Notes: generated by a model not told the origin, from the letters alone. A stretch of DNA of 64,000 nucleotides from a candidate division WWE3 bacterium RIFOXYC1_FULL_40_10 (GCA_001773215.1 MEWB01000001.1:395052-459051), one strand, 5' to 3'. Shown: positions 4,654 to 40,757, counted from the first letter of the stretch. A program made the numbers and translations.

Positions 4654-4974
4654 TTACTGCGGATCGATTTTGACAGCCACTCTCTTTCGTACAGGCGCCT
4701 GTGCTCTACCAAGCAGGAGTAAAACCAGCAGAAGCAGTACTCCCAGGAAAAAGCCACCAAATCCAAAGAGCGTAAATAGTAGCGCTGTCACCACCCACCT
4801 ACCCAAATTTGGCTCGCTGCGAGTATATTTCTCAAAGACAGCAATTCCGAGACATAGCACGATGCAGCCGACCAAGAACGCGCTGTTGAGGAACAGTTGT
4901 CTTTCAGTAATTACGAGCTGAGGAAATAACCAGTTGAGGATATTTGGCAGAATCATTTTTTTCTCCTTAGTCAA
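4654..4974 (-). CDS. small membrane protein (2-3 TM helices, basic C-terminus)
   Basis: 106 aa, hydrophobic segments LFLNSAFLVGCIVLCLGIAVF and VVTALLFTLFGFGGFFLGVLLLLVLLLL. G+C-richer than neighbours. The antisense ORF 4616-4921 was judged a shadow frame. Confidence 0.45.
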   Translation of the reverse strand: MTKEKKMILPNILNWLFPQLVITERQLFLNSAFLVGCIVLCLGIAVFEKYTRSEPNLGRWVVTALLFTLFGFGGFFLGVLLLLVLLLLGRAQAPVRKRVAVKIDPQ

Positions 4975-5025
4975 AAGTTATTGAAAGAGTATAGCACACC
5001 TATAGGCCAAACAGCAAACGAAGAG

Positions 5026-5190
5026 CTATTTTTCAAAAACCTTGGTTATCACAGAAATAATATCCTTACCCGACCTTTTGGTAGCTTCGAGTAAAGCGAT
5101 CAGCGATTTCAATGCTTCGTTGTTCTCGTGCAGTTTCAAAATCTCTTGGCTTTTATTGATTTCCGATGGGTTCGACTTTTCGTTTTTCAT
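5026..5190 (-). CDS. small hypothetical protein (54 aa)
   Basis: Own translation MKNEKSNPSEINKSQEILKLHENNEALKSLIALLEATKRSGKDIISVITKVFEK. Helical/coiled character; below the ORF-track cutoff. Confidence 0.25.
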   Translation of the reverse strand: MKNEKSNPSEINKSQEILKLHENNEALKSLIALLEATKRSGKDIISVITKVFEK

Positions 5191-5198
5191 ATAAATAC

Positions 5199-5906
5199 CT
5201 AGGTCACAATACCATCTATGGTATTAAACCACTTTACAAATTTAGCCACATGTCCGTAGGTGGCCACACTATAGGGATTTCCCGCGTTGTATGCAGTAGC
5301 TAACTGTTCAACACTTAAATCTCCATAAACATCCAGATTCCGTTTATGATACCTTCCAATTAAATCTATGTTCACATCAGCACTATATAACTGGTCGGGA
5401 GAACCCGAAAAGCCAATTCCCCGTGCAGTACCGTATAATAACTGCCCCAAACCATAACTCGCGTCATTTATATGTGGTTCATACCTGTAAGCCTTGGTAT
5501 TACCACCAGATTCCACCATAATAGTGGCAAAAATTACCTTCGGATCTACATCATATCTTTTTGAGGCATCAACAATCTGAGGTTCATATCGCCTCCATAC
5601 ACCTAAAGCTCGTAGTTGTTCTTTATCCAGAGATCCCCGAAGCTTATCGTCATTTAGGGTAATTACCTTCAGCTCTTTTTGAATTGAAGGGGTTGTATCC
5701 ATAGCAACTGTCGTAACAGGAGTAGTTAAGGTCGAGTACGAAAGCATAAGTGCCATTCCAATACTCTGTGCATATTTTGCCAGGTTATCAAAGTCAATTC
5801 CTTGCGTCCGCATCCATGCGTAGGCCTCTGCATACCTATCCTCTAGCACTGCTAATAACCTTTTATGTTCTTCTTTTAAATCACTCACCGTTGGACTTGT
5901 CATCAC
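5199..5906 (-). CDS. lytic transglycosylase (SLT / GH23 domain) protein
   Basis: Catalytic-Glu motif IMVESGGN, followed by YGLGQL and AYNAG, typical of the SLT domain. Confidence 0.75.
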   Translation of the reverse strand: MMTSPTVSDLKEEHKRLLAVLEDRYAEAYAWMRTQGIDFDNLAKYAQSIGMALMLSYSTLTTPVTTVAMDTTPSIQKELKVITLNDDKLRGSLDKEQLRALGVWRRYEPQIVDASKRYDVDPKVIFATIMVESGGNTKAYRYEPHINDASYGLGQLLYGTARGIGFSGSPDQLYSADVNIDLIGRYHKRNLDVYGDLSVEQLATAYNAGNPYSVATYGHVAKFVKWFNTIDGIVT

Positions 5907-25072: not shown

Positions 25073-26527
25073 TTATTGTAAATTAGCGCGAGAACTCAAG
25101 GACAGTGCCACGAATCCGCCAAACCCAAAAATTAGTATAACTTTTACCCCCGTAGCAGACGATGTGTGAACTTTCACTTCTTCGCATCTAACATACTCTG
25201 TTGCTTTGAACTCATCAGTTAGAAAACCTTCGAGTCCCCATAGCTCAAATAGACTTGCGGCAACTTCCTCGCCTTCCCCAATAAAGTAAGGCCGAGAAGC
25301 AAGCCAATCACTATCTAATCCGGCCGGTAGTAAGCATGGCCCAATGATAGTAGGAGGCTTAATATCAACTCCCCTCCTCATGGTGCGTACCTCATCTCCT
25401 ACCAGCAGCCTACCCTCACGGTGCTCTTTAGCAAAGGTAAGCGCCGAATTAAGGTTTTGAGAAACATACTCGCCCACAGTGTAATACACCTCGACAATGG
25501 TAATCTCTTTGAATACTCCCGGCCGAACCTCAATTGTAGGGGGTACAAAATTCGGATACTCCAACTCGATCTTTTGCTCCTTACCCCTTTTAAAGCTTTT
25601 TACAGTTACGGCCTCGGGTGTTCGATTGGCTTCAGCTATAGCTCCCTCGAGGTATCTATGCCATTTAATCCCCTTGGAAGTGGACAGTTGGAAGTATCTC
25701 TCCCCCGAAGGCCAACCGGCTAACTCATCCGGCGGAGCCCATGCATCCAAAATTTCCAGTAAAATCGGAGTATCGAAACCCCTTTGCAAAAACACTGCCC
25801 CTGCTTCGTACTGGGACTCGGCATATCGTCTGGCTTCCTCCTCAGTGTCATATTCTCGTCGAGACAAGGTTGTTGAGGAATCCGGCAGATATACATATTT
25901 TATCTCTACAGGTAGTCCGCCTTCATTCAAACAGGACACAAGTTGCTGCCAAGAAGAAAAACTTCGCGGATCTCCTTCTTGATTTCCCTGCTCCGCAGTT
26001 TTGTAGATAAAAACCCTCGATTGCTTGGAATACCCGTACACTGCAACCTCAGACCCATTCACAAGAGTACCACGGCATTCCCTATCCGGTTCAAGAAAAT
26101 ATCTTCTCGAAAATGATTCTACGGGAATATCTGCCCCGGCAATCACTAAAGCTTGTTGTGAGGGTGGATTAACTTTTAAACGTAACCCTGCCGCGGACTC
26201 AACCACACAGTTATCTAAAGCTCGCGCATTTTTAAAATAGGCTGCGTCTTTCTTTACAACTCTATCGAAAAAATGAAAAAGATACTCGCGAGTGTAACCG
26301 TTTTGGAAACCCACAACGCCTACATTCGTCCCCTCAATAGTTTCCCCGGTACATGGTAGTGTCCCCGGAGGAAAAAAACCTCCATCGGGTAGCCGATCGA
26401 AAATTATAGCCTCTTCCTCTGACCAGGCGTTTTCATAGTCAGAGGTGTCTAACGGGATACATCCTACAAGAACAAGCAACAGTGTAACTTGGATAATCCG
26501 AACAAAGAATCTACTCTTAATGACCAT
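25073..26527 (-). CDS. predicted lipoprotein with C-terminal TM anchor, unknown function (G+C-richer than surroundings)
   Basis: Lipobox-like LLLVLVGC, a large soluble region, C-terminal VKVILIFGFGGFVALSL plus a short polar tail. Confidence 0.55.
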   Translation of the reverse strand: MVIKSRFFVRIIQVTLLLVLVGCIPLDTSDYENAWSEEEAIIFDRLPDGGFFPPGTLPCTGETIEGTNVGVVGFQNGYTREYLFHFFDRVVKKDAAYFKNARALDNCVVESAAGLRLKVNPPSQQALVIAGADIPVESFSRRYFLEPDRECRGTLVNGSEVAVYGYSKQSRVFIYKTAEQGNQEGDPRSFSSWQQLVSCLNEGGLPVEIKYVYLPDSSTTLSRREYDTEEEARRYAESQYEAGAVFLQRGFDTPILLEILDAWAPPDELAGWPSGERYFQLSTSKGIKWHRYLEGAIAEANRTPEAVTVKSFKRGKEQKIELEYPNFVPPTIEVRPGVFKEITIVEVYYTVGEYVSQNLNSALTFAKEHREGRLLVGDEVRTMRRGVDIKPPTIIGPCLLPAGLDSDWLASRPYFIGEGEEVAASLFELWGLEGFLTDEFKATEYVRCEEVKVHTSSATGVKVILIFGFGGFVALSLSSRANLQ

Positions 26528-31050: not shown

Positions 31051-31107
31051 TGAGGGGACGTAGCTCAGTGGTAGACCTGCCTGCCGGCAGGCAGGGCAGC
31101 GGCTAAG
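31051..31107 (+). repeat. truncated 5' copy of tRNA-Lys interrupted by a 20-bp palindrome
   Basis: TGAGGGGACGTAGCTCAGTGGTAGA (25 nt) is identical to 31352-31376. After the palindrome, GCAGCGGC matches the anticodon-stem 5' strand of the intact gene; then the sequences diverge. Confidence 0.7.
31076..31095. repeat. perfect 20-bp palindrome CCTGCCTGCCGGCAGGCAGG
   Basis: Read directly; self-complementary. It is absent from the intact tRNA-Lys copy. Confidence 0.85.
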
Positions 31108-31114
31108 TAGTAGT

Positions 31115-31354
31115 ATGTATTTTGTATACGTATTAAAAAATGCCAAAGGTGTACTATACAAGGGACTGACGAGAGACCCGCTGACACGTTTGGAGCAACA
31201 TAACAAGAGCAGAAATAGGAGTACAAAAGGGAAGGGTGTTTGGGAACTTGTACTCATTGAAAATTATAATACACGCGCTGAAGCCAGGAAGCGCGAGAAG
31301 TATCTTAAGAGCGGATCTGGAAGGGAAATGCTTCGCAGGATATTGCATCTATGA
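31115..31354 (+). CDS. GIY-YIG nuclease-domain mini-protein (UPF0213/YhbQ-like)
   Basis: MYFVYVLKNAKGVLYKGLTRDPLTRLEQHN..WELVLIENYNTRAEARKREKYLK matches the GIY-YIG catalytic core. The stop TGA abuts the tRNA-Lys 5' end. Confidence 0.8.
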   Translation: MYFVYVLKNAKGVLYKGLTRDPLTRLEQHNKSRNRSTKGKGVWELVLIENYNTRAEARKREKYLKSGSGREMLRRILHL

Positions 31355-31429
31355 GGGGACGTAGCTCAGTGGTAGAGCAGCGGCCTTTTAAGCCGTTTGT
31401 CGTGGGTTCGAACCCCACCGTCCTCACCA
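31355..31429 (+). tRNA. tRNA-Lys (anticodon TTT)
   Basis: GGGGACGTAGCTCAGTGGTAGAGCAGCGGCCTTTTAAGCCGTTTGTCGTGGGTTCGAACCCCACCGTCCTCACCA. Anticodon loop CTTTTAA, CCA encoded. Confidence 0.9.
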
Positions 31430-31548: not shown

Positions 31549-31845
31549 ATGTATAAGTTGAGAGTTATAGACTGGCATGACGAGGCGGATCGCGCTGATT
31601 ATTGGGACCCCGCTTTCAATGGAGCACCTGGAAATACGATAGGCTTTCTACACGAAGAGCTCTGTTCTGATCCTCATACAGTGATCCAGCGCATCAGCGA
31701 ATGTACAGCTTACCACCCACCTGCTTTAGAAGAGATTGAGAAACTCGGTGTTGGGGACTTCTATAAAAAAGAGCTATATAACGACCATGAAGACGGATGC
31801 TGGGGTAGTATCCCTGAGGGATACTTAGTATTTAGAGTGCCATAG
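31549..31845 (+). CDS. hypothetical protein (98 aa)
   Basis: SD AGAGGAGTTATGAGATG. G+C-richer segment. Confidence 0.45.
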   Translation: MYKLRVIDWHDEADRADYWDPAFNGAPGNTIGFLHEELCSDPHTVIQRISECTAYHPPALEEIEKLGVGDFYKKELYNDHEDGCWGSIPEGYLVFRVP

Positions 31846-31936
31846 TCAGTGTATCGACAGGAGTGGTCCCATACTCCCATGCTCTGCATAGTGTTTTTAG
31901 TGTACAATCATGCAAAATCGATAATACGGAGGCTAA

Positions 31937-32339
31937 GATGAAGCAATTGCGAATTTTTTTGTCCATGATCGCTCTGATTACCATTGGAGTTGCTTGCTTC
32001 TACCTGGGCAAACATAGCGTTCACACCTATGAGTTTGTCCGAGAGGAAGAAGTAAACAATACTCGTTACATCTTCATAAAGGAACCTGTCAGTGGTAAAG
32101 CTGTAGTCGATCGTGATGGCTATCTGGCAACAGGCTTCATTTCGCTCGATACGGTTCGGCTCAATGAAAAAGGCCAGCTAGTAATGACGGACAAGAGTCT
32201 TTTAGTAGTTACATGCCCAAATGGTGAGGCTGTTGTGTCAGCTACAGGGTACGACCCACAGTCCTCCCTAATAGCTTGTGGTAGCATAAAAGACTTAATT
32301 ACTAATTCGGAAGGTGTCTTGAGAATTTACAAAAAATAA
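31937..32339 (+). CDS. membrane-anchored hypothetical protein
   Basis: Track ORF starts at 31863. The internal ATG at 31937 has an SD (ACGGAGGCTAAGATG) and a signal/TM MKQLRIFLSMIALITIGVACF. Confidence 0.45.
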
Positions 32340-32360
32340 TAGTACTAGGAACATTCCTAA

Positions 32361-32388
32361 GACTCAACCAAAAGTTGGGTCTTTTTTG
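32361..32388 (+). terminator. rho-independent terminator candidate
   Basis: gactcaacc-aaaa-gttgggtc followed by tttttt. Confidence 0.5.
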
Positions 32389-32430
32389 TTTAAATCAGAA
32401 GTATTGAATCGTCTATTGACCACCTCATCA

Positions 32431-32880
32431 CTATTTCAATACTATGTGATACTCACCTGATCCGTCGTGAGTGACTTGCATTTCTTTATTTAAAACACTT
32501 GGATCCCAGTTTTCACCCCAAATGCTTAAGTACGGTTGATTGTTGTAAGAGCCGCTCTTTGAATATATTTTTTTAACTATCCTGCCACTATCAGGCTCTT
32601 CGGGTACCTTGGGACCTAGATCGATATACATAACAGGGAGTTGGCCGTGAATATCAAAGGTCCAAACCCTATCGGTAAACCCAAATATTTCTGCAAGAGC
32701 AACAAGGTCCTCAATTTTTCTAAAGGCATTCTCACCACTTATGTAACCTCCTCCTTCGGCAAACAAAGCGTTTTTATTTAAGTTAGGAAATTTTTGGATC
32801 AAAACAGGATAAGTTGCTTCCCTTACTACTTCCCGACGATGCCTTTCATCAGCCATAGACTCATTATACACACTCACCAT
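32431..32880 (-). CDS. hypothetical protein (149 aa)
   Basis: Protein-like composition. No recognised motif. Confidence 0.5.
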   Translation of the reverse strand: MVSVYNESMADERHRREVVREATYPVLIQKFPNLNKNALFAEGGGYISGENAFRKIEDLVALAEIFGFTDRVWTFDIHGQLPVMYIDLGPKVPEEPDSGRIVKKIYSKSGSYNNQPYLSIWGENWDPSVLNKEMQVTHDGSGEYHIVLK

Positions 32881-32905
32881 CGTAAAATAATGTTAAAATT
32901 TAATA

Positions 32906-33778
32906 ATGAAAAGTCCAGAAACAAGTCCGGAGGAATTCAAAAAGGACATTGCTCGTGTGGCCAGAAGAACTTTCATCTCAAAAGAGCTTGAAAACACTAA
33001 ATCTATTTCCGAAGTATCAGAAGGTGTCAGACAGAGGGAAACCCAAAGTGATGTCCAAGGTATTATTGAAAAACTTACGGAATCTGGCGAAACCTTGGAA
33101 CCCAAGATCGAAAAGTTATGTGAGTCATTATTGGAAAAACTACGAGCTGAATTTCCGTTCATCAAAGGAATAGTGGTAATGGGTAGTGGAGCACACGGAG
33201 GTGGATTGGTTAGATCAATTGTAGGAGACGAGGAGGAAGATTTAGATTGGACAATTGTATCGTCCAAGCGCCTAATGAGTCAGTCTTCAATAGACCAGGA
33301 GGTTCTAAAAGAGATCAGAATACGAGGGGATGAAATTATGAGAGAGATTGCTCCCCAGGTCGGTTTTACTTCAGAAATACAGTCCTGCCCTATGTATAAC
33401 CCGAGAAGTGGGGTTATCTATGAATTAGATAAAAATGAAGCCGAGCTCCTCGTTATGAAGGATGCTTATTCGATAAGACCATATCTTAACCCCACAATAC
33501 CTAAGACTGTGGGAGAAAATAACAGGATCCTGATTCAGCGGGCTCTGTTAGGCCTGGAGACTAACGATAACTGGAGGTTTGGATACTTGGGGAGAGATCT
33601 TAAGGATATGTGGAAAAAGATGCATACTCTAAAATATAAACACTTTGAGCATTACAACAAAGACTCCAGATCAGTAACGATGCTGAAAAGGATAGAGGAT
33701 AATTCTGCCAAGTCTATGACTGATAAGCCAGTCAGGGGATTGATTGATACACAAGAAAGAACCCGGCCTGGCGAATAA
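32906..33778 (+). CDS. nucleotidyltransferase-fold (Pol-beta superfamily) protein
   Basis: hG[GS]x9-13[DE]h[DE]h-like segment VVMGSGAHGGGLVRSIVGDEEEDLDWTIV. The family cannot be assigned without a search. Confidence 0.5.
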   Translation: MKSPETSPEEFKKDIARVARRTFISKELENTKSISEVSEGVRQRETQSDVQGIIEKLTESGETLEPKIEKLCESLLEKLRAEFPFIKGIVVMGSGAHGGGLVRSIVGDEEEDLDWTIVSSKRLMSQSSIDQEVLKEIRIRGDEIMREIAPQVGFTSEIQSCPMYNPRSGVIYELDKNEAELLVMKDAYSIRPYLNPTIPKTVGENNRILIQRALLGLETNDNWRFGYLGRDLKDMWKKMHTLKYKHFEHYNKDSRSVTMLKRIEDNSAKSMTDKPVRGLIDTQERTRPGE

Positions 33779-33801
33779 TCGCAAAGTCGGGTTCTACTAG
33801 A

Positions 33802-34701
33802 TTACAACAAAATCGGATTAGCCGAACTCAGCAGGTAAAATCTGTATGGCCTTCGTCCTTCGGGTGTTGGCAATTTCCATACAAATGCCTTTATAAGCTG
33901 GCCAATATTAATTTCTATTCCAGAGGAGCGCATGTCAGGCTTGACAGGTTGAGTGTCCCCATCAAAATAGCACACTGGCACCTTTGGATCATAATGCGCA
34001 GGCACTACCTGCAATAAAACCTGTTTTTTTGACCCTATTGCGCTGAACGCATTCCAATCAAGTCCCTCATCCCGAAGCCAGCTTTCCAAACGCGACACCG
34101 AATCCGGGTTTAAGGTAACGTACAAGGTGCCTCTCCGAACCTCAAACTCAAGTCCGAGGCTATTCGCCAACCTGGCTTTTGCTATGTTTGGAATACCATG
34201 TCCTGGAAGAAACTCCCCGGTGGCTGTCTCGGCGAATTTAAATCCTCCGCTCTTATATCGATAGTATTTGTTATCCCAAGCGGGGCTCACAATACCATTT
34301 GTCGGCAAAAGCCTAACCGGTTCATATTTCCTTCCGGTTAAAACTTTAATTCGGCAACCAGCCAAAGATAGCTGGGTAATTGACTCTCGAAGGTTTCCTC
34401 GATAGAACAGATTGTGGAACCAGATCCGAAGCTCGTTCCCTCCATTTGTAGCCTGACCAACCTGCCAGCTGAATCCAGGGTCAACAATTGTATAACCGGA
34501 ATCGGTTTTACTAACTGCCTGCCGGATTGGAACCTCATTTCCAATCCAATTAGGGATCAGCAGATCCGGTGAGCGGAAAGTGCTCTCTCCTGGTACAAAA
34601 AACCTTATCGCCTTTCGTGTCTTATCTACCATCCAGGTAGCGCAAACCGGAACAAAGTTGCCGTCAAATCGTGGTTTTACCCAAATGATTATCGATCTCA
34701 T
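33802..34701 (-). CDS. hypothetical protein (299 aa), G+C-richer
   Basis: No recognised motif. Confidence 0.5.
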   Translation of the reverse strand: MRSIIIWVKPRFDGNFVPVCATWMVDKTRKAIRFFVPGESTFRSPDLLIPNWIGNEVPIRQAVSKTDSGYTIVDPGFSWQVGQATNGGNELRIWFHNLFYRGNLRESITQLSLAGCRIKVLTGRKYEPVRLLPTNGIVSPAWDNKYYRYKSGGFKFAETATGEFLPGHGIPNIAKARLANSLGLEFEVRRGTLYVTLNPDSVSRLESWLRDEGLDWNAFSAIGSKKQVLLQVVPAHYDPKVPVCYFDGDTQPVKPDMRSSGIEINIGQLIKAFVWKLPTPEGRRPYRFYLLSSANPILL

Positions 34702-34836
34702 TTAAAGCCTCCTTTTGGCTTTTGTAATAGGTTTGACTAGATTAAATAACTGTAAATATTATACTATGGGCTTGGACTAAAATCAAGCCATAAAAAGACT
34801 AATGACAAGCCTAAAAAATTCATATACCATTACATT

Positions 34837-35901
34837 GTGAAGGAGTCCGTAAAAACAATTGCCACCAAAACAAAGGAGCTATTCACCGACAAAGCCCTTT
34901 GCAAAGAACTAAAACTTATCGCTGTAGCTTATTCCCACATAGAACGCGAAATGTTTGCGACGGAGGATGCATACAATGCTGAACTTGAAGTTGAAGAACG
35001 TGCCAAGCAAGTAGTTGAAACACTAAAAAAGCTGGGTTTCAACGTAAAAAGTTATGCCAGTGACCCTTACTTTCTAACCAACATCATCGTGGATAAGCCT
35101 GATTTACTTATTAATCTTGTAGACACCGTAAAAGGCCGAGATGAACTGCAGGAATCCATCCCTGCAATTTTAGAGTTTGCGGGCATCGAGTACACAGGAA
35201 GCGGTATCTCAGGACTAGTTGTCGGAAATAATCGAAATTATTTTAAACAGCTACTAATTACATCAGAAATTCCCTCACCTCAATTTAAATATATTAAAGA
35301 TTTAAGATCTAATACTGAACCCGACTTTGATCCACCTTATATAGTTAAACTAAATGAAAGCGGCGGAAGTGTAGGTATCGACAATAAAGCAGTAAAAGCT
35401 ACGAAAAAAGAAGTGTTAGAAAAAGTTAAAGACATGATTACCGCCTACAAGATGCCCGTTCTCATTGAACAGTTTATAGGCGGACCTGAAATCACAGCAG
35501 TCGTATTCGATGATGGGAATTCAAAAACTGTATATTTAGCTGAGAAAAAGTTTGGGATAAAACCGGACGGCGTGCACAATTTTACCAGCCAGGATAGCTA
35601 CGAATACGACAAAGCCTACACATATAAGTTTGTAGACGAAAAACTGGAGGAAAGGATAATTCCTCTAGTAATTAAGGCTTTCAACGTATTAAAATATAAA
35701 GATTACGCCAAATTTGACATTAGATTAGGGGAAAATGACATTCCATTTTTTATCGACTGCAACCCCAATACAGCATTCGGCCCCGATAAGGGTTTGCCTA
35801 TGACAGAGGTTTTAAAGATGTATGGAGTTAGCTTCGAAAATGTACTTTTAAGTTTAGTTAGCAAGCATGCCAGAATTATCAAAAACAAAAAGGTTGGATA
35901 A
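34837..35901 (+). CDS. ATP-grasp ligase (D-alanine--D-alanine-ligase-like fold)
   Basis: GTG start. PYIVKLNESGGSVGI (central-domain Gly loop), EQFIGGPEITAVVF, KFDIRL..FFIDCNPNTAFG (the Ddl E-x-N position reads D-x-N). Confidence 0.65.
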   Translation: MKESVKTIATKTKELFTDKALCKELKLIAVAYSHIEREMFATEDAYNAELEVEERAKQVVETLKKLGFNVKSYASDPYFLTNIIVDKPDLLINLVDTVKGRDELQESIPAILEFAGIEYTGSGISGLVVGNNRNYFKQLLITSEIPSPQFKYIKDLRSNTEPDFDPPYIVKLNESGGSVGIDNKAVKATKKEVLEKVKDMITAYKMPVLIEQFIGGPEITAVVFDDGNSKTVYLAEKKFGIKPDGVHNFTSQDSYEYDKAYTYKFVDEKLEERIIPLVIKAFNVLKYKDYAKFDIRLGENDIPFFIDCNPNTAFGPDKGLPMTEVLKMYGVSFENVLLSLVSKHARIIKNKKVG

Positions 35902-36505
35902 AATTCGTACTATCCAGCAAATATCCGAAAATCACTGCGGGCCGGCCGTCGTACAGATGTTGCTGGAAAACATTGGGATTGAAACAACCCAGGAACTGAT
36001 CACAAAAGCGGGAGGTTCAAATGAGTCTATGCTTGACCGATATGGAATGCGTGTGGACCAATTTGCAAAAGCTGTGTTTGTTATAGCACCCACTGCTTCC
36101 TTGTGGACTAAGGAGAAGGCTACTGTAAATGATATAAAAAAGTTACTTGAGGTTTACGATCATCCGGTGGGTATAGAGTGGCAGGGGCTGTTTGAAGACT
36201 CCTTAGAAGAGGAGGACCCTGATGAAGACTATGGGCACTATAGCATAGTCTCACATGTGGATGAAGAAACGGGTAATTTAATAATTGTAGACCCATACAA
36301 AGACTTTGTAGATAGAAACAGAATAGTCTCCAACAAAATCTTTGTGAAAAGGTGGTGGGACAATAATGCGTACATGGACGAGGTAACCTGCAAATTGAAG
36401 CATAAAAAGGACGTGAGGCTTCTATTCATTATTGCAGACAACTCGGAAACGTTTCCTGAAGAACTTGGACTTACGAAGGTAAGACAAGCCTCGTGTAACA
36501 CGTAG
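35867..36505 (+). CDS. papain-like cysteine peptidase, C39-like domain
   Basis: Q(x5)NHCGPAVVQMLL catalytic-Cys context and downstream GHYSIVSHVDEETGNLIIVDP His/Asp context. Overlaps the ATP-grasp gene by 35 nt. Confidence 0.5.
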   Translation: MPELSKTKRLDKIRTIQQISENHCGPAVVQMLLENIGIETTQELITKAGGSNESMLDRYGMRVDQFAKAVFVIAPTASLWTKEKATVNDIKKLLEVYDHPVGIEWQGLFEDSLEEEDPDEDYGHYSIVSHVDEETGNLIIVDPYKDFVDRNRIVSNKIFVKRWWDNNAYMDEVTCKLKHKKDVRLLFIIADNSETFPEELGLTKVRQASCNT

Positions 36506-36518
36506 AGGAAAATACCAG

Positions 36519-36959
36519 CTATTTAGTCGATTCTTTTATTTTCATGGCGCTTCGGCCTTTTTTACCACGCAAGTAAAAAAGCTTAGCTCTACGAACTTTA
36601 CCATGCTTTAATATATCCAAACTAACAATGCTAGGTGAATTTAGCGGAAAGATTCTTTCTACTCCGACACCATCAACGCCTATTCTTCTCACTACAAAAG
36701 TTTTGGAATCTCCAGCACCCCTTTTGGATATTACAATGCCTTCGTAAGGCTGTAATCTGGTTTTATCTCCTTCAATTATCTTGTACTGAAGTTTTATAGT
36801 ATCTCCCGGTTTAAAATCCGGCATCTCAAAGCGCGAGATTTTTTGTTCTTCCTTTATTTCCGGCAACTCTGAAATAGGATCTACCGCATCGGCTACAGCC
36901 GGTTCTTCGGTTATTTCTGGGGAATCAGTATTTTGTTGTTGTAATGTATCTTCTGCCAT
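36519..36959 (-). CDS. rplS: 50S ribosomal protein L19
   Basis: [58 protein letters not shown]. Acidic N-terminal extension. Confidence 0.85.
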
Positions 36960-39163: not shown

Positions 39164-39574
39164 TCACTTTGGCTGTTTTTTTTGGTACTTGTAATCTATT
39201 CCCCCTGCTCGCCTATTACCGGCATATGTGTGTTTCTTCATAAAGTCAGCGGGGAATCTTTCCTCAAACTCATTAAGCCTATCTATAACTGCTTTTTGTG
39301 AATCAACCTCAAAAACGCACGCCAGTTTGTATACGAGGTACATTAAATCCCCTATGCTATCCTCCAGCTCGAGTTTATTTTCACTCATCACTTTTTTTAA
39401 CAGGGTCTCGTCTTTTTCCAAATGTTTAACTATATTCCATGCCTCCCCTATTTCCTCAGTAAGGTTTAACAGAATCCCATACACCTGGTATTTCTCTCCC
39501 CAATTACGAGCACTAATAAATTTATTGATCCTTTTCTGCATTTCATCTATTTTTACACTACTTTTTTTTGGCAT
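39164..39574 (-). CDS. MazG-like all-alpha NTP pyrophosphohydrolase
   Basis: ISARNWGEKYQ..LLNLTEEIGEAWN..LELEDSIGDLMYLVYKLA matches the MazG/dCTPase-type EExxE..D metal-binding helices. Confidence 0.65.
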   Translation of the reverse strand: MPKKSSVKIDEMQKRINKFISARNWGEKYQVYGILLNLTEEIGEAWNIVKHLEKDETLLKKVMSENKLELEDSIGDLMYLVYKLACVFEVDSQKAVIDRLNEFEERFPADFMKKHTYAGNRRAGGIDYKYQKKQPK

Positions 39575-40757
39575 ACACTGAATTTACCCTTTTAGTTCCT
39601 TTGTTCTCAAAACTAATTACTTGAAACCCAGTTTTCTTGAGCATCTTTTTGACACCCGCTATTGAGTATATACTCTTTTCTCTACTCATATCTCCCTCGG
39701 TTTTTCCAACCTTTTGGATAAAATCTAAAATAAGCGTGCCATTATTATTCAGCAAGCGGTATGCCTCCCTAACAAGCTTGTCGGAAGAATACTTTAAATG
39801 AGATAACAAAACTCCTCTGCTCACAATCAGATCGAAACTATTAACAGGTAGTGCTGTGTCAGCTGCATCTCCTACAAGGTACCCAATCTTTGGCGTTAGT
39901 TTTTTGGCAACGGCAATCATTTCTGGCGCAATATCAATTCCGGTGACTGATTTTGTAATTTTGGCCGACAAAAGGTGCCTGGCCACAATTCCTGTGCCGC
40001 ATCCCAGATCCAGTGCCTTTCTAAAAGTGGTCTTCCTACACACCTTTTCTACAAACCGGAGGAACCTTTTATAGCCCTTTTCAATGTTTACGTAGTGGGC
40101 CGAATTCTTGACATCTTTCTCCCAGGAACCAGCATGCTCCCCCCACTTTTTTTCGGAAATAATGTTAAGCATCTTTTCGAACTCGCATTCATACACGTGT
40201 AGGGACATAATGAAAATTGTAAAATCACCGGACTGAAGTTTAAGTTTTTTTGCAACTTGGTTGTGAATTTCCGATAATTTATATAAATCCGGGGGGAGCT
40301 TTTTTAGTGCGTCCATACTGCGCGATGCCACCGACATTACAAGTCTTCCATCTCTAATCATAAAGTTAAGCCCCCATACGCAAGGCACATGCTCATACGC
40401 AGTTTTTGGATCGATAAGTGTGACTATAGCTGATTTAGACCATGGGTTTTTTTTCAACTTCTTCACAACCAAATCGAGTTGGTCTATTCCATCGAAACTA
40501 TGTATATTCTTATAGTAGTACCCCTTCTCGAAGATGGCCTTAACAAACTCAAAGTGCTTTGAACCCATTTTCTCTAAATACCACGAAAGCTCAGCTCTAT
40601 CCGATTTATTACCGCAAACGCTTATTTTCATGTTTCGAAGTTCCAAAAGCTTTTCATCACCGTCGATGATTTCGCGGCCATATTTGAACAAGGCTCTTAA
40701 AGCTTTGTACCAGGCATCACTAAGGTTATTCGCTTTGTAATTAAGGTAGTCTTCCAT
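39558..40757 (-). CDS. thymidylate-synthase-like (pyrimidine C5 hydroxymethylase/methylase fold) fused to a class I SAM-dependent methyltransferase
   Basis: N-terminal half aligns by eye to ThyA: IDQLDLVVKKLKKNPWSKSAIVTLIDP, catalytic Cys in VPCVWGLNFMIRDGRLVMSVASRSMDALKKLPPD, and ..FIMSLHVYE. C-terminal half has LDLGCGTGIVARHL and DLIVSRGVLLSHL. Confidence 0.75.
   Translation of the reverse strand: MEDYLNYKANNLSDAWYKALRALFKYGREIIDGDEKLLELRNMKISVCGNKSDRAELSWYLEKMGSKHFEFVKAIFEKGYYYKNIHSFDGIDQLDLVVKKLKKNPWSKSAIVTLIDPKTAYEHVPCVWGLNFMIRDGRLVMSVASRSMDALKKLPPDLYKLSEIHNQVAKKLKLQSGDFTIFIMSLHVYECEFEKMLNIISEKKWGEHAGSWEKDVKNSAHYVNIEKGYKRFLRFVEKVCRKTTFRKALDLGCGTGIVARHLLSAKITKSVTGIDIAPEMIAVAKKLTPKIGYLVGDAADTALPVNSFDLIVSRGVLLSHLKYSSDKLVREAYRLLNNNGTLILDFIQKVGKTEGDMSREKSIYSIAGVKKMLKKTGFQVISFENKGTKRVNSVYAKKK

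Follow-up and report, generated by a model that had tools for sequence, protein, structure and literature searches.

A Ddl-like ATP-grasp ligase and an overlapping papain-fold cysteine enzyme form a two-gene unit conserved in Patescibacteria and Chloroflexota

The stretch of DNA analysed here (the window, 64 kb in full) comes from the candidate division WWE3 bacterium RIFOXYC1_FULL_40_10, a member of the candidate phyla radiation (CPR)/Patescibacteria with a genome of about 0.9 Mb. Between a tRNA-Lys gene (31355-31429) and rplS (36519-36959, - strand), the window contains seven open reading frames (ORFs), six of which a first-pass annotation made from the sequence alone had presented as one accessory cluster. 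Co-occurrence across genomes shows instead that only the last two of the seven recur together, and that the real unit comprises two genes only, i.e., a Ddl-like ATP-grasp ligase and an overlapping papain-fold cysteine enzyme, referred to below as the peptidase. Their products are 100% identical to the proteins A3K34_02410 and A3K34_02415, respectively. The unit is arranged as follows:

34837-35901, + strand: Ddl-like ATP-grasp ligase, 354 aa, GTG start, A3K34_02410, assigned by Pfam and by its homologues
35867-35901, + strand: overlap of 35 nt between the 3' end of the ligase gene and the 5' end of the peptidase gene, with a +1 frame shift
35867-36505, + strand: papain-fold Cys-His-Asp enzyme, 212 aa, A3K34_02415, of the C39_2/phytochelatin-synthase-like group

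A scan with a profile of the peptidase, covering one genome per GTDB species (185,579 species genomes), yielded 46 loci, 33 of them in Chloroflexota, seven in Patescibacteria, five in Gammaproteobacteria and one in Bacteroidota. All 46 are found in metagenome-assembled genomes (MAGs). When genomic contexts were fetched through homologues of either the ligase or the peptidase, both genes adjoined each other in the same order, and the ligase was directly upstream of the peptidase in 48 of the 50 loci fetched, which belong to Chloroflexota, Patescibacteria, Bacteroidota and Gammaproteobacteria. This result agrees with the first-pass view of the two genes as a functional pair. There are two exceptions. 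In locus L033, the upstream side is not visible because the peptidase gene sits at the very start of the contig, and in locus L050, from Shapirobacteria, the peptidase copy is divergent and is not directly preceded by a ligase gene.

The 35-nt overlap, already noticed in the window, is a recurrent trait. The junction could be scored in 47 loci; in 42 of them the genes overlap, by 14-38 nt, and in 17 of these 42 the overlap is exactly 35 nt. This arrangement probably reflects translational coupling. In addition, the pairwise identities of the ligases and those of the peptidases are correlated (Pearson r = 0.80; 41 loci). Adjacency, conserved overlap and correlated identities together indicate that the pair is inherited, and probably also transferred, as a unit.

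We have looked for further members of this unit in several ways. None of the five ORFs that precede the pair in the window has a homologue in any other pair-bearing locus (50 loci). An all-against-all clustering of 1,829 ORFs of at least 60 aa from the 50 loci, in which the shadow ORFs of the pair itself were set aside, yielded no family present in more than six loci. The Pfam families counted in 142 neighbouring proteins are generic, such as extracytoplasmic function (ECF) sigma factors (six), major facilitator superfamily (MFS) proteins (five) and histidine kinases (five). As regards precursor peptides, whose search had been proposed together with the first-pass annotation, none was conserved among 1,770 small ORFs (15-90 aa) located within 1.2 kb of the pair in about 47 loci; the best cluster came from four closely related loci and consisted of shadow ORFs. 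Fusions of ligase and peptidase were sought among the longer homologues, whose extra residues turned out to be mis-called N-termini. No relatives of the peptidase were found on plasmids, phages or IMG/VR contigs, and the adjacency of the pair to rplS/trmD does not recur among the loci. Since neither another conserved partner, nor a precursor, nor mobile relatives were found, ligase and peptidase make up a stand-alone two-gene module.

The ligase matches the Pfam family Dala_Dala_lig_C (E 4.8e-14) and has more than 1,300 homologues. The 120 matches listed are proteins of about 347 aa that share 55-72% identity with the window protein and come from Patescibacteria and from Chloroflexota/Anaerolineales; by these comparisons the family is a distinct and highly conserved subfamily of about 347 aa. 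It is remote from the bona fide D-Ala-D-Ala ligases. The window protein scores 95 and 79.5 bits with the Ddl models NF002378 and TIGR01205, whose cut-offs are 243 and 245.65 bits (about 40%), and three further members of the family reach 84-100 bits, likewise below the cut-off. Against the cut-off of 243 bits, the scores of the family as a whole span 89-100 bits. In NCBIfam, the ligase matches Ddl, Van and PurD models only, far below their curated cut-offs. The PDB was searched with the window sequence by itself and with a profile of 44 sequences; Ddl and VanA came first, followed by PurD, PurK, biotin carboxylase and one L-amino-acid ligase, and no graspetide, RimK or glutathione-synthetase structure was retrieved.

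To place the catalytic residues, 116 members of the ligase family were aligned to Escherichia coli DdlB (sequence identical to PDB 2DLN), and invariance was judged on 44-116 members. The correspondence between DdlB and the window ligase is as follows:

K144 (ATP/Mg): K171, invariant
E180 (ATP/Mg): E211, invariant
E187 (ATP/Mg): E218, invariant
D257 (ATP/Mg): D294, invariant
E270 (Mg ligand): D307, an invariant Asp
N272 (Mg ligand): N309, invariant
E15 (holds the amino group of D-Ala1): E49, invariant, the sole substrate residue kept
S150 (substrate site): Gly
Y216 (substrate site): Glu/Asp (97% Glu), with an uncertain alignment of the omega-loop
R255 (substrate site): K292, an invariant Lys
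S281 and L282 (bind the D-Ala2 carboxylate): not conserved

The family also carries an insertion of about 11 residues ahead of the Glu15 motif with respect to DdlB. The first-pass annotation had read D-x-N in place of the E-x-N of Ddl, and this holds for the whole family, in which D307 and N309 of the D307-C-N309 motif are invariant. The Cys308 that lies between these two Mg residues is near-invariant, the corresponding residue of Ddl being aliphatic, and may be redox-sensitive. The family thus has the ATP-binding Lys/Glu residues and the Mg-binding D/E...E/D-x-N triad of an active ATP-grasp ligase, and it has probably kept the ability to activate free amino acids. With the D-Ala2 pocket replaced, the acceptor would be an amine other than D-alanine.

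One proposal for this locus would be that the ligase is the housekeeping D-Ala-D-Ala ligase of the cell and that the peptidase is an unrelated neighbour. Ddl is indeed the best database match of the ligase, and no other ddl gene is present within the 64-kb window. However, the score of 95 bits against a cut-off of 243, the changes S150 to Gly, Y216 to Glu/Asp and R255 to Lys and the loss of the D-Ala2 carboxylate site all argue against it, as do the strict linkage to a peptidase in four phyla and the patchy distribution (46 loci in 185,579 species genomes). Moreover, two contigs of related CPR bacteria, i.e., L053 (2599-3618, 8849-9907) and the Joint Genome Institute (JGI) contig of P0008, carry 7 kb from the pair a second Ddl-like gene (339 aa), in which the R-x-D and E-x-N motifs are preserved and whose product reaches a higher score, 176 bits, with the Ddl model. 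The coexistence of the pair with this more canonical paralogue disfavours a housekeeping role, which we consider highly improbable. The doubt already expressed in the first-pass annotation, i.e., that this ATP-grasp enzyme is not a standard Ddl, was therefore well founded. The L053 and P0008 contigs also have a class A penicillin-binding protein (PBP) gene beside the pair and, directly upstream of the pair, a gene for a stand-alone RVT_1 reverse transcriptase (340-352 aa), which is missing from the other loci with DNA.

The peptidase matches the Pfam families C39_2 (26.2 bits; cut-off 24) and C39 (25.3 bits) with E-values of about 1e-5, just above the cut-offs. Its family comprises about 860 matches of about 203 aa that are roughly 50-55% identical to the window protein. 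An alignment of 51 homologues contains 57 invariant positions, including Q18, H23-C24-G-P-A, Y122-G-H124-Y, D142-P-Y-K, E104-W-Q-G and R162-W-W-D. The earlier assignment to the papain-like C39-type peptidases is upheld by these matches and by the residues Q18, C24, H124 and D142, and the proposed check on the conservation of the catalytic Cys and His gave a clear outcome, C24 and H124 being invariant in all 51 homologues. No signal peptide was seen in the sequence, and the enzyme is predicted to be cytoplasmic.

An AlphaFold model of the peptidase, built from the alignment of homologues, has a predicted local distance difference test (pLDDT) score of 86.8 and a predicted template modelling (pTM) score of 0.86. 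The top match of this model in a Foldseek search of the PDB is Alr0975 from Nostoc, including its glutathione acyl-enzyme structures (E 1e-6; template modelling (TM) score 0.60 over about 200 residues). The next matches are the C39 domains of ComA and PCAT1, which align over the core only, and then papain-like toxins of type VI secretion (T6SS) and contact-dependent inhibition (CDI) systems and the pseudomurein endoisopeptidase PeiR. When the PDB sequences were searched with a profile, Alr0975 again came first (E 0.004), with the Q-x5-C, His and Asp segments aligned. Since the similarity is remote (15-18% identity) and the Pfam model Phytochelatin (PF05023) gives no match at E <= 1, Alr0975 should be taken as the nearest known relative and not as a sign of family membership.

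Alr0975 is the primitive phytochelatin synthase of Nostoc (MEROPS C83; PDB 2BU3, 6TH5). It acts on a small ATP-grasp-made peptide through a thioester acyl-enzyme. The window enzyme resembles it in being a single domain of similar size and differs from it in a poly-acidic loop, in the EWQG and RWWD motifs, which are specific to the window peptidase family, and in having neither a signal nor a pro-region. With the C39/C39_2 peptidase domains of ComA and PCAT1, the window enzyme shares the core fold (TM normalised to the target of about 0.8) and the catalytic Gln/Cys/His/Asp. However, it is a stand-alone protein with about 60 residues beyond the C39 core of about 140-150 residues, and it has no fused or adjoining ABC transporter and no double-glycine substrate nearby. 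Larger proteins that combine Peptidase_C39_2 with TPR repeats (364-381 aa) are encoded a few kb from the pair in L051 (15595-16740), L012 (8565-9680), L007, L039 and the P0008 contig, often beside an Amidase_3 gene.

The first-pass annotation had interpreted the association of an ATP-grasp enzyme with a C39-like peptidase as the core of a graspetide/microviridin-type cluster for a ribosomally synthesised and post-translationally modified peptide (RiPP), in which the ATP-grasp enzyme would macrocyclise a ribosomal precursor and the C39 peptidase would cut off the leader. An ATP-grasp enzyme does adjoin a C39-family domain here, and C39-type peptidases can process such peptides. Nevertheless, the window ligase is of the Ddl type and belongs to a different clade, as no model or structure of a graspetide maturase (MdnB/C, PsnB, CdnC clade) was matched in NCBIfam or the PDB, and the loci contain neither a conserved small ORF within the 1.2 kb searched, nor a conserved family of at least 60 aa, nor an ABC transporter or other RiPP gene. 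In a survey of graspetides, the precursors (up to 150 aa, with a leader and a Ser/Thr-Asp/Glu core) adjoin the ligase, and C39 peptidases are not typical of the loci (PMC8939145). The graspetide proposal is thus largely refuted, and we retain it as a very slight possibility.

The poly-acidic loop lies just before the catalytic His and is modelled with low confidence. It spans residues ~110-121 in the window protein and varies in length between 9 and 42 residues across the family. Nearly every ligase-linked copy has 5-21 Asp/Glu in this loop and hardly any Lys/Arg; the exceptions are the gammaproteobacterial L037 and L039, with a short loop and only three acidic residues. The loop of L050, the sole copy confirmed to be without a ligase, has no acidic and four basic residues. 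In this L050 peptidase (4965-5648; 39% identical), the acidic loop is replaced by a basic one (PKTGRK) and the Q/C/H/D residues are kept.

A disordered Asp/Glu-rich loop next to the catalytic His, lost in the copy that lacks a ligase, is what might be expected if the pair were a protein writer and eraser of the RimK/TTL kind. In that case, the ligase would add amino acids to acidic side chains or to a C-terminus, possibly within the acidic loop of its own partner, and the peptidase would remove them. Translational coupling, which suggests a stoichiometric complex, would also fit, and peptide tagging had been raised by the first-pass annotation too. On the other hand, the ligase is Ddl-type and conserves the Glu that binds a free amino acid, no NCBIfam or PDB match connects it with RimK, TTL or the graspetide ligases, the link between loss of the loop and absence of the ligase comes from one orphan copy, and no candidate target protein is co-conserved with the pair. 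Such a writer/eraser is in our opinion quite unlikely, and a peptide-tagging system is a minor possibility.

The relationship of the ligase with Ddl and VanA also brings to mind a remodelling of cell-wall precursors similar to that of VanA/VanX, in which the ligase would make a D-Ala-X, stem or cross-bridge bond and the peptidase would destroy the normal dipeptide or trim the stem. Among solved structures, Ddl and VanA come closest to the ligase, which shares with them the fold, the domain order, the ATP/Mg ligands and the Glu15 equivalent and finds in them its best Pfam, NCBIfam and PDB matches. The canonical Ddl-like gene and the class A PBP gene lie within 7 kb of the pair in the related CPR contigs, Amidase_3, SLT and FemAB-like genes are found near the pair in L051 and L012, and PeiR is among the fold matches of the peptidase. 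However, this proximity of wall genes can be due to chance, because CPR genomes are small and dense in such genes; wall genes are not enriched among the 142 neighbours scanned and are absent around most Chloroflexota copies. Unlike the Ddl/VanA-type ligases, the window family is always paired with a cysteine peptidase, has Asp for E270 and Lys for R255, and has lost the D-Ala2 carboxylate-binding residues, which in the Van ligases are merely altered. The peptidase, for its part, lacks a signal peptide and does not resemble VanX or VanY. Thus, we regard wall remodelling as unlikely.

The six ORFs, the tRNA-Lys gene and rplS described in the first-pass annotation are all present, and a further ORF of 149 aa, overlooked there, was found on the - strand. 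The features located between the tRNA-Lys gene and the pair are as follows:

31549-31845, + strand: ORF of 98 aa, A3K34_02385, orphan neighbour outside the conserved pair
31863-32339, + strand: ORF of 158 aa with one hydrophobic segment, orphan neighbour outside the pair
32431-32880, - strand: ORF of 149 aa, A3K34_02395, orphan neighbour outside the pair, the one overlooked before
32906-33778, + strand: ORF of 290 aa, A3K34_02400, with a GS...DxD-like motif at residues 93-115, orphan outside the pair
33802-34701, - strand: ORF of 299 aa, A3K34_02405, divergent from the ligase gene and outside the pair
34733-34762, + strand: candidate element with 10/12 matches, from a consensus scan only (weak evidence)

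Four of the five ORFs, i.e., all except the 158-aa ORF, are labelled 'hypothetical protein' in the source assemblies. The 98-, 158- and 149-aa ORFs match no family of Pfam, NCBIfam, PADLOC or PHROG and are absent from all the other pair-bearing loci. The 98-aa protein carries the 'hypothetical protein' label only and occurs in WWE3 assemblies only, and the exact start and sequence of the 158-aa ORF were not found in the protein collection. The 299-aa protein has a single distant homologue, P0243 (32% identity, E 8e-14), among 1.84 billion representatives searched; it is encoded in a contig of 4.8 kb with unannotated ORFs and without the ligase-peptidase pair, and a search of phages for the 299-aa protein was empty. 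The 290-aa protein is its own sole match among 5.8 billion proteins. We conclude from these searches that the five ORFs between the tRNA-Lys gene and the pair are, as far as homology can tell, unrelated lineage-specific genes in a variable spot beside a tRNA gene.

The 290-aa protein had been described as a nucleotidyltransferase of the Pol-beta superfamily. The motif behind this assignment is present (GSGAHGGG at residues 93-100 and DEEEDLDW at residues 108-115, within an hhGS-x17-DhDh pattern at residues 91-115), and the putative nucleotidyltransferase assignment derives only from this short motif; there is no match in Pfam, NCBIfam, PADLOC, PHROG or the PDB, and a single-sequence AlphaFold run gave a pLDDT of 35.8 and the model was discarded. 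The region had also been said to have a visibly higher G+C content, which the calculation bears out only weakly: its G+C is 0.416 against a window mean of 0.398, and windows of equal size have a standard deviation of 0.020 and a maximum of 0.427. The 98-aa ORF (0.461) and the 299-aa ORF (0.466) are the only ones that stand out, and the ATP-grasp gene (0.381) is below the window mean. The G+C peak of the window is found at 25-26 kb (46.6%), above any part of the 31549-36505 region, and is explained by a 484-aa ORF (25073-26527, - strand; 46% G+C) without a Pfam match.

A nucleotidyltransferase next to the pair had been taken as a possible sign of a nucleotide-signalling or defence module. In such a reading, all seven genes would form an island linked to the tRNA gene. 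The genes do lie beside tRNA-Lys, five consecutive orphans are typical of a variable region, the 290-aa protein has its GS...DxD-like motif, and a GIY-YIG cassette with a duplicated 5' part of the tRNA is located just upstream. Nonetheless, none of the seven proteins matches PADLOC at E <= 1, and PHROG gave no match either; no integrase and no repeat of the 3' end of tRNA-Lys that would mark an integrated element were found; the G+C is barely raised; the nucleotidyltransferase fold is putative, with no hidden Markov model (HMM) or PDB match and a model of low confidence; the orphans never accompany the pair elsewhere, the 290- and 299-aa genes being absent from the 50 other pair loci; and the phage, plasmid and IMG/VR searches made with the peptidase, as well as the phage search made with the 299-aa protein, were empty. 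Therefore, such an island is hardly credible.

The GIY-YIG cassette deserves a description of its own. A second copy of the 5' part of tRNA-Lys, comprising its first ~38 nt with the acceptor and D arms as far as the 5' strand of the anticodon stem, occupies 31051-31100 and is broken by a 20-nt palindrome, CCTGCCTGCCGGCAGGCAGG. Just downstream of the duplicate there is a GIY-YIG ORF of 79 aa (31115-31354) that abuts the intact tRNA-Lys gene. This arrangement looks like the trace of a cassette whose insertion into the tRNA gene also restored that gene. A comparison with Rfam gave no intron match. On the other side of the pair, the ribosomal protein L19 encoded by rplS has an acidic N-terminal extension of ~27-36 residues, and its Pfam L19 match begins at residue 37. 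Further downstream, a 399-aa ORF (39558-40757, - strand) encodes an unusual fusion of a partial thymidylate-synthase domain (residues 87-203) and a C-terminal S-adenosylmethionine (SAM)-dependent methyltransferase domain.

Returning to the pair, we propose that it is a self-contained coupled module in which a ligase and a cysteine amidase/transpeptidase act on a small amide, a proposal to which we give about an even chance of being right. The pair would probably make, and then cleave or transfer, a small non-ribosomal peptide-like compound. The proposal takes as its starting point the pairing and the gene overlap, the catalytic residues, which are intact in both enzymes, the altered acceptor pocket and the lack of a precursor, a transporter or any other partner; from these we infer what the two enzymes catalyse, which way each step runs and the kind of substrate. 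In a first step, the ligase would phosphorylate a free amino acid on its carboxylate at the expense of ATP-Mg, yielding an acyl phosphate, while the invariant Glu49, the counterpart of Ddl Glu15, would hold the amino group, and the activated amino acid would be joined to an amine that is not D-alanine. In a second step, the Cys24-His124-Asp142 enzyme would form a thioester acyl-enzyme with a small peptide or amide belonging to this pathway, and the acyl group would be either hydrolysed or passed to another amine. The invariably acidic residue at the position of Tyr216 and the acidic loop near the catalytic His of the peptidase hint at a substrate that is cationic or associated with a metal.

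If the outcome of the second step is hydrolysis, the pair would be a make-and-break system like glutathionylspermidine synthetase/amidase. In E. coli Gss, an ATP-grasp amide synthetase is coupled one-to-one with a papain-clan cysteine amidase that works on a small cationic peptide conjugate. The likeness is one of logic only, i.e., an ATP-grasp synthetase coupled to a papain-clan amidase: Gss is one fused polypeptide with a CHAP amidase and an ATP-grasp domain that is not of the Ddl type, whereas the window genes are separate, and the window pair has no CHAP, GSP_synth or other Gss-like sequence match in Pfam, NCBIfam or the PDB.

If the outcome is transfer, the peptidase would work like a phytochelatin synthase acting on the product of glutathione synthetase. 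A specific form of this idea is a two-step CPR/Chloroflexota pathway in which a glutathione-synthetase-like ligase of the Ddl type feeds a phytochelatin-synthase-like transpeptidase, the product being an oligomeric metal-binding or cationic peptide. The gene context of the closest relatives fits such a phytochelatin-like reading. In L051 and L052 (72% ligase identity) and in the Saccharibacteria MAG L012 (69%), the pair follows copA on the same strand, within a copper cluster (L051 4588-14819; L012 1397-7715) that encodes a CsoR-type repressor, HMA-domain proteins and cupredoxins, and then a MASE3 histidine kinase. However, the window itself lacks copper-resistance genes of the L051/L012 type, and beyond these three loci the search added just one P-type ATPase, in L022. 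The link with copper resistance is confined to one synteny group plus this ATPase, and thus it is not general. This specific pathway is rather improbable.

Several points weigh against the proposal of a coupled ligase and amidase/transpeptidase. The similarity of the peptidase to phytochelatin synthase is as remote as indicated above, and the C39 domains of ComA score almost as well. The alignment around the omega-loop of Ddl, which contains Tyr216, is uncertain. A ligase and a hydrolase acting on one bond would create a futile cycle unless they were regulated, and the gene neighbourhoods do not show a consistent pathway context.

In the literature searched, there is no description of a Ddl-like/C39_2 pair, although the amidoligase work of Iyer et al. 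(2009) may contain an earlier mention. A recent classification of papain-like peptidases, which discusses the glutathionylspermidine synthetase/amidase family, does not mention the pair (PMC10318531). The coupling of an ATP-grasp ligase to a papain-clan enzyme is already known in kind, and this Ddl-like/C39_2 version of it appears to be new.

The cluster had been drawn too widely, five of its seven genes being unrelated orphans. What remains is a large family of tightly coupled enzymes, represented in public data by more than 1,300 sequences of the ligase and about 860 of the peptidase and showing, among the matches listed, a ligase identity of 55-72% across phyla. The pair occurs mainly in uncultured Patescibacteria and Anaerolineales, groups with a barely explored small-molecule biochemistry. 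The identification of its product would add a new route for the non-ribosomal formation of amides, and, if the phytochelatin-like reading were true, the pair would provide ultra-small bacteria with a metal- or stress-buffering peptide.

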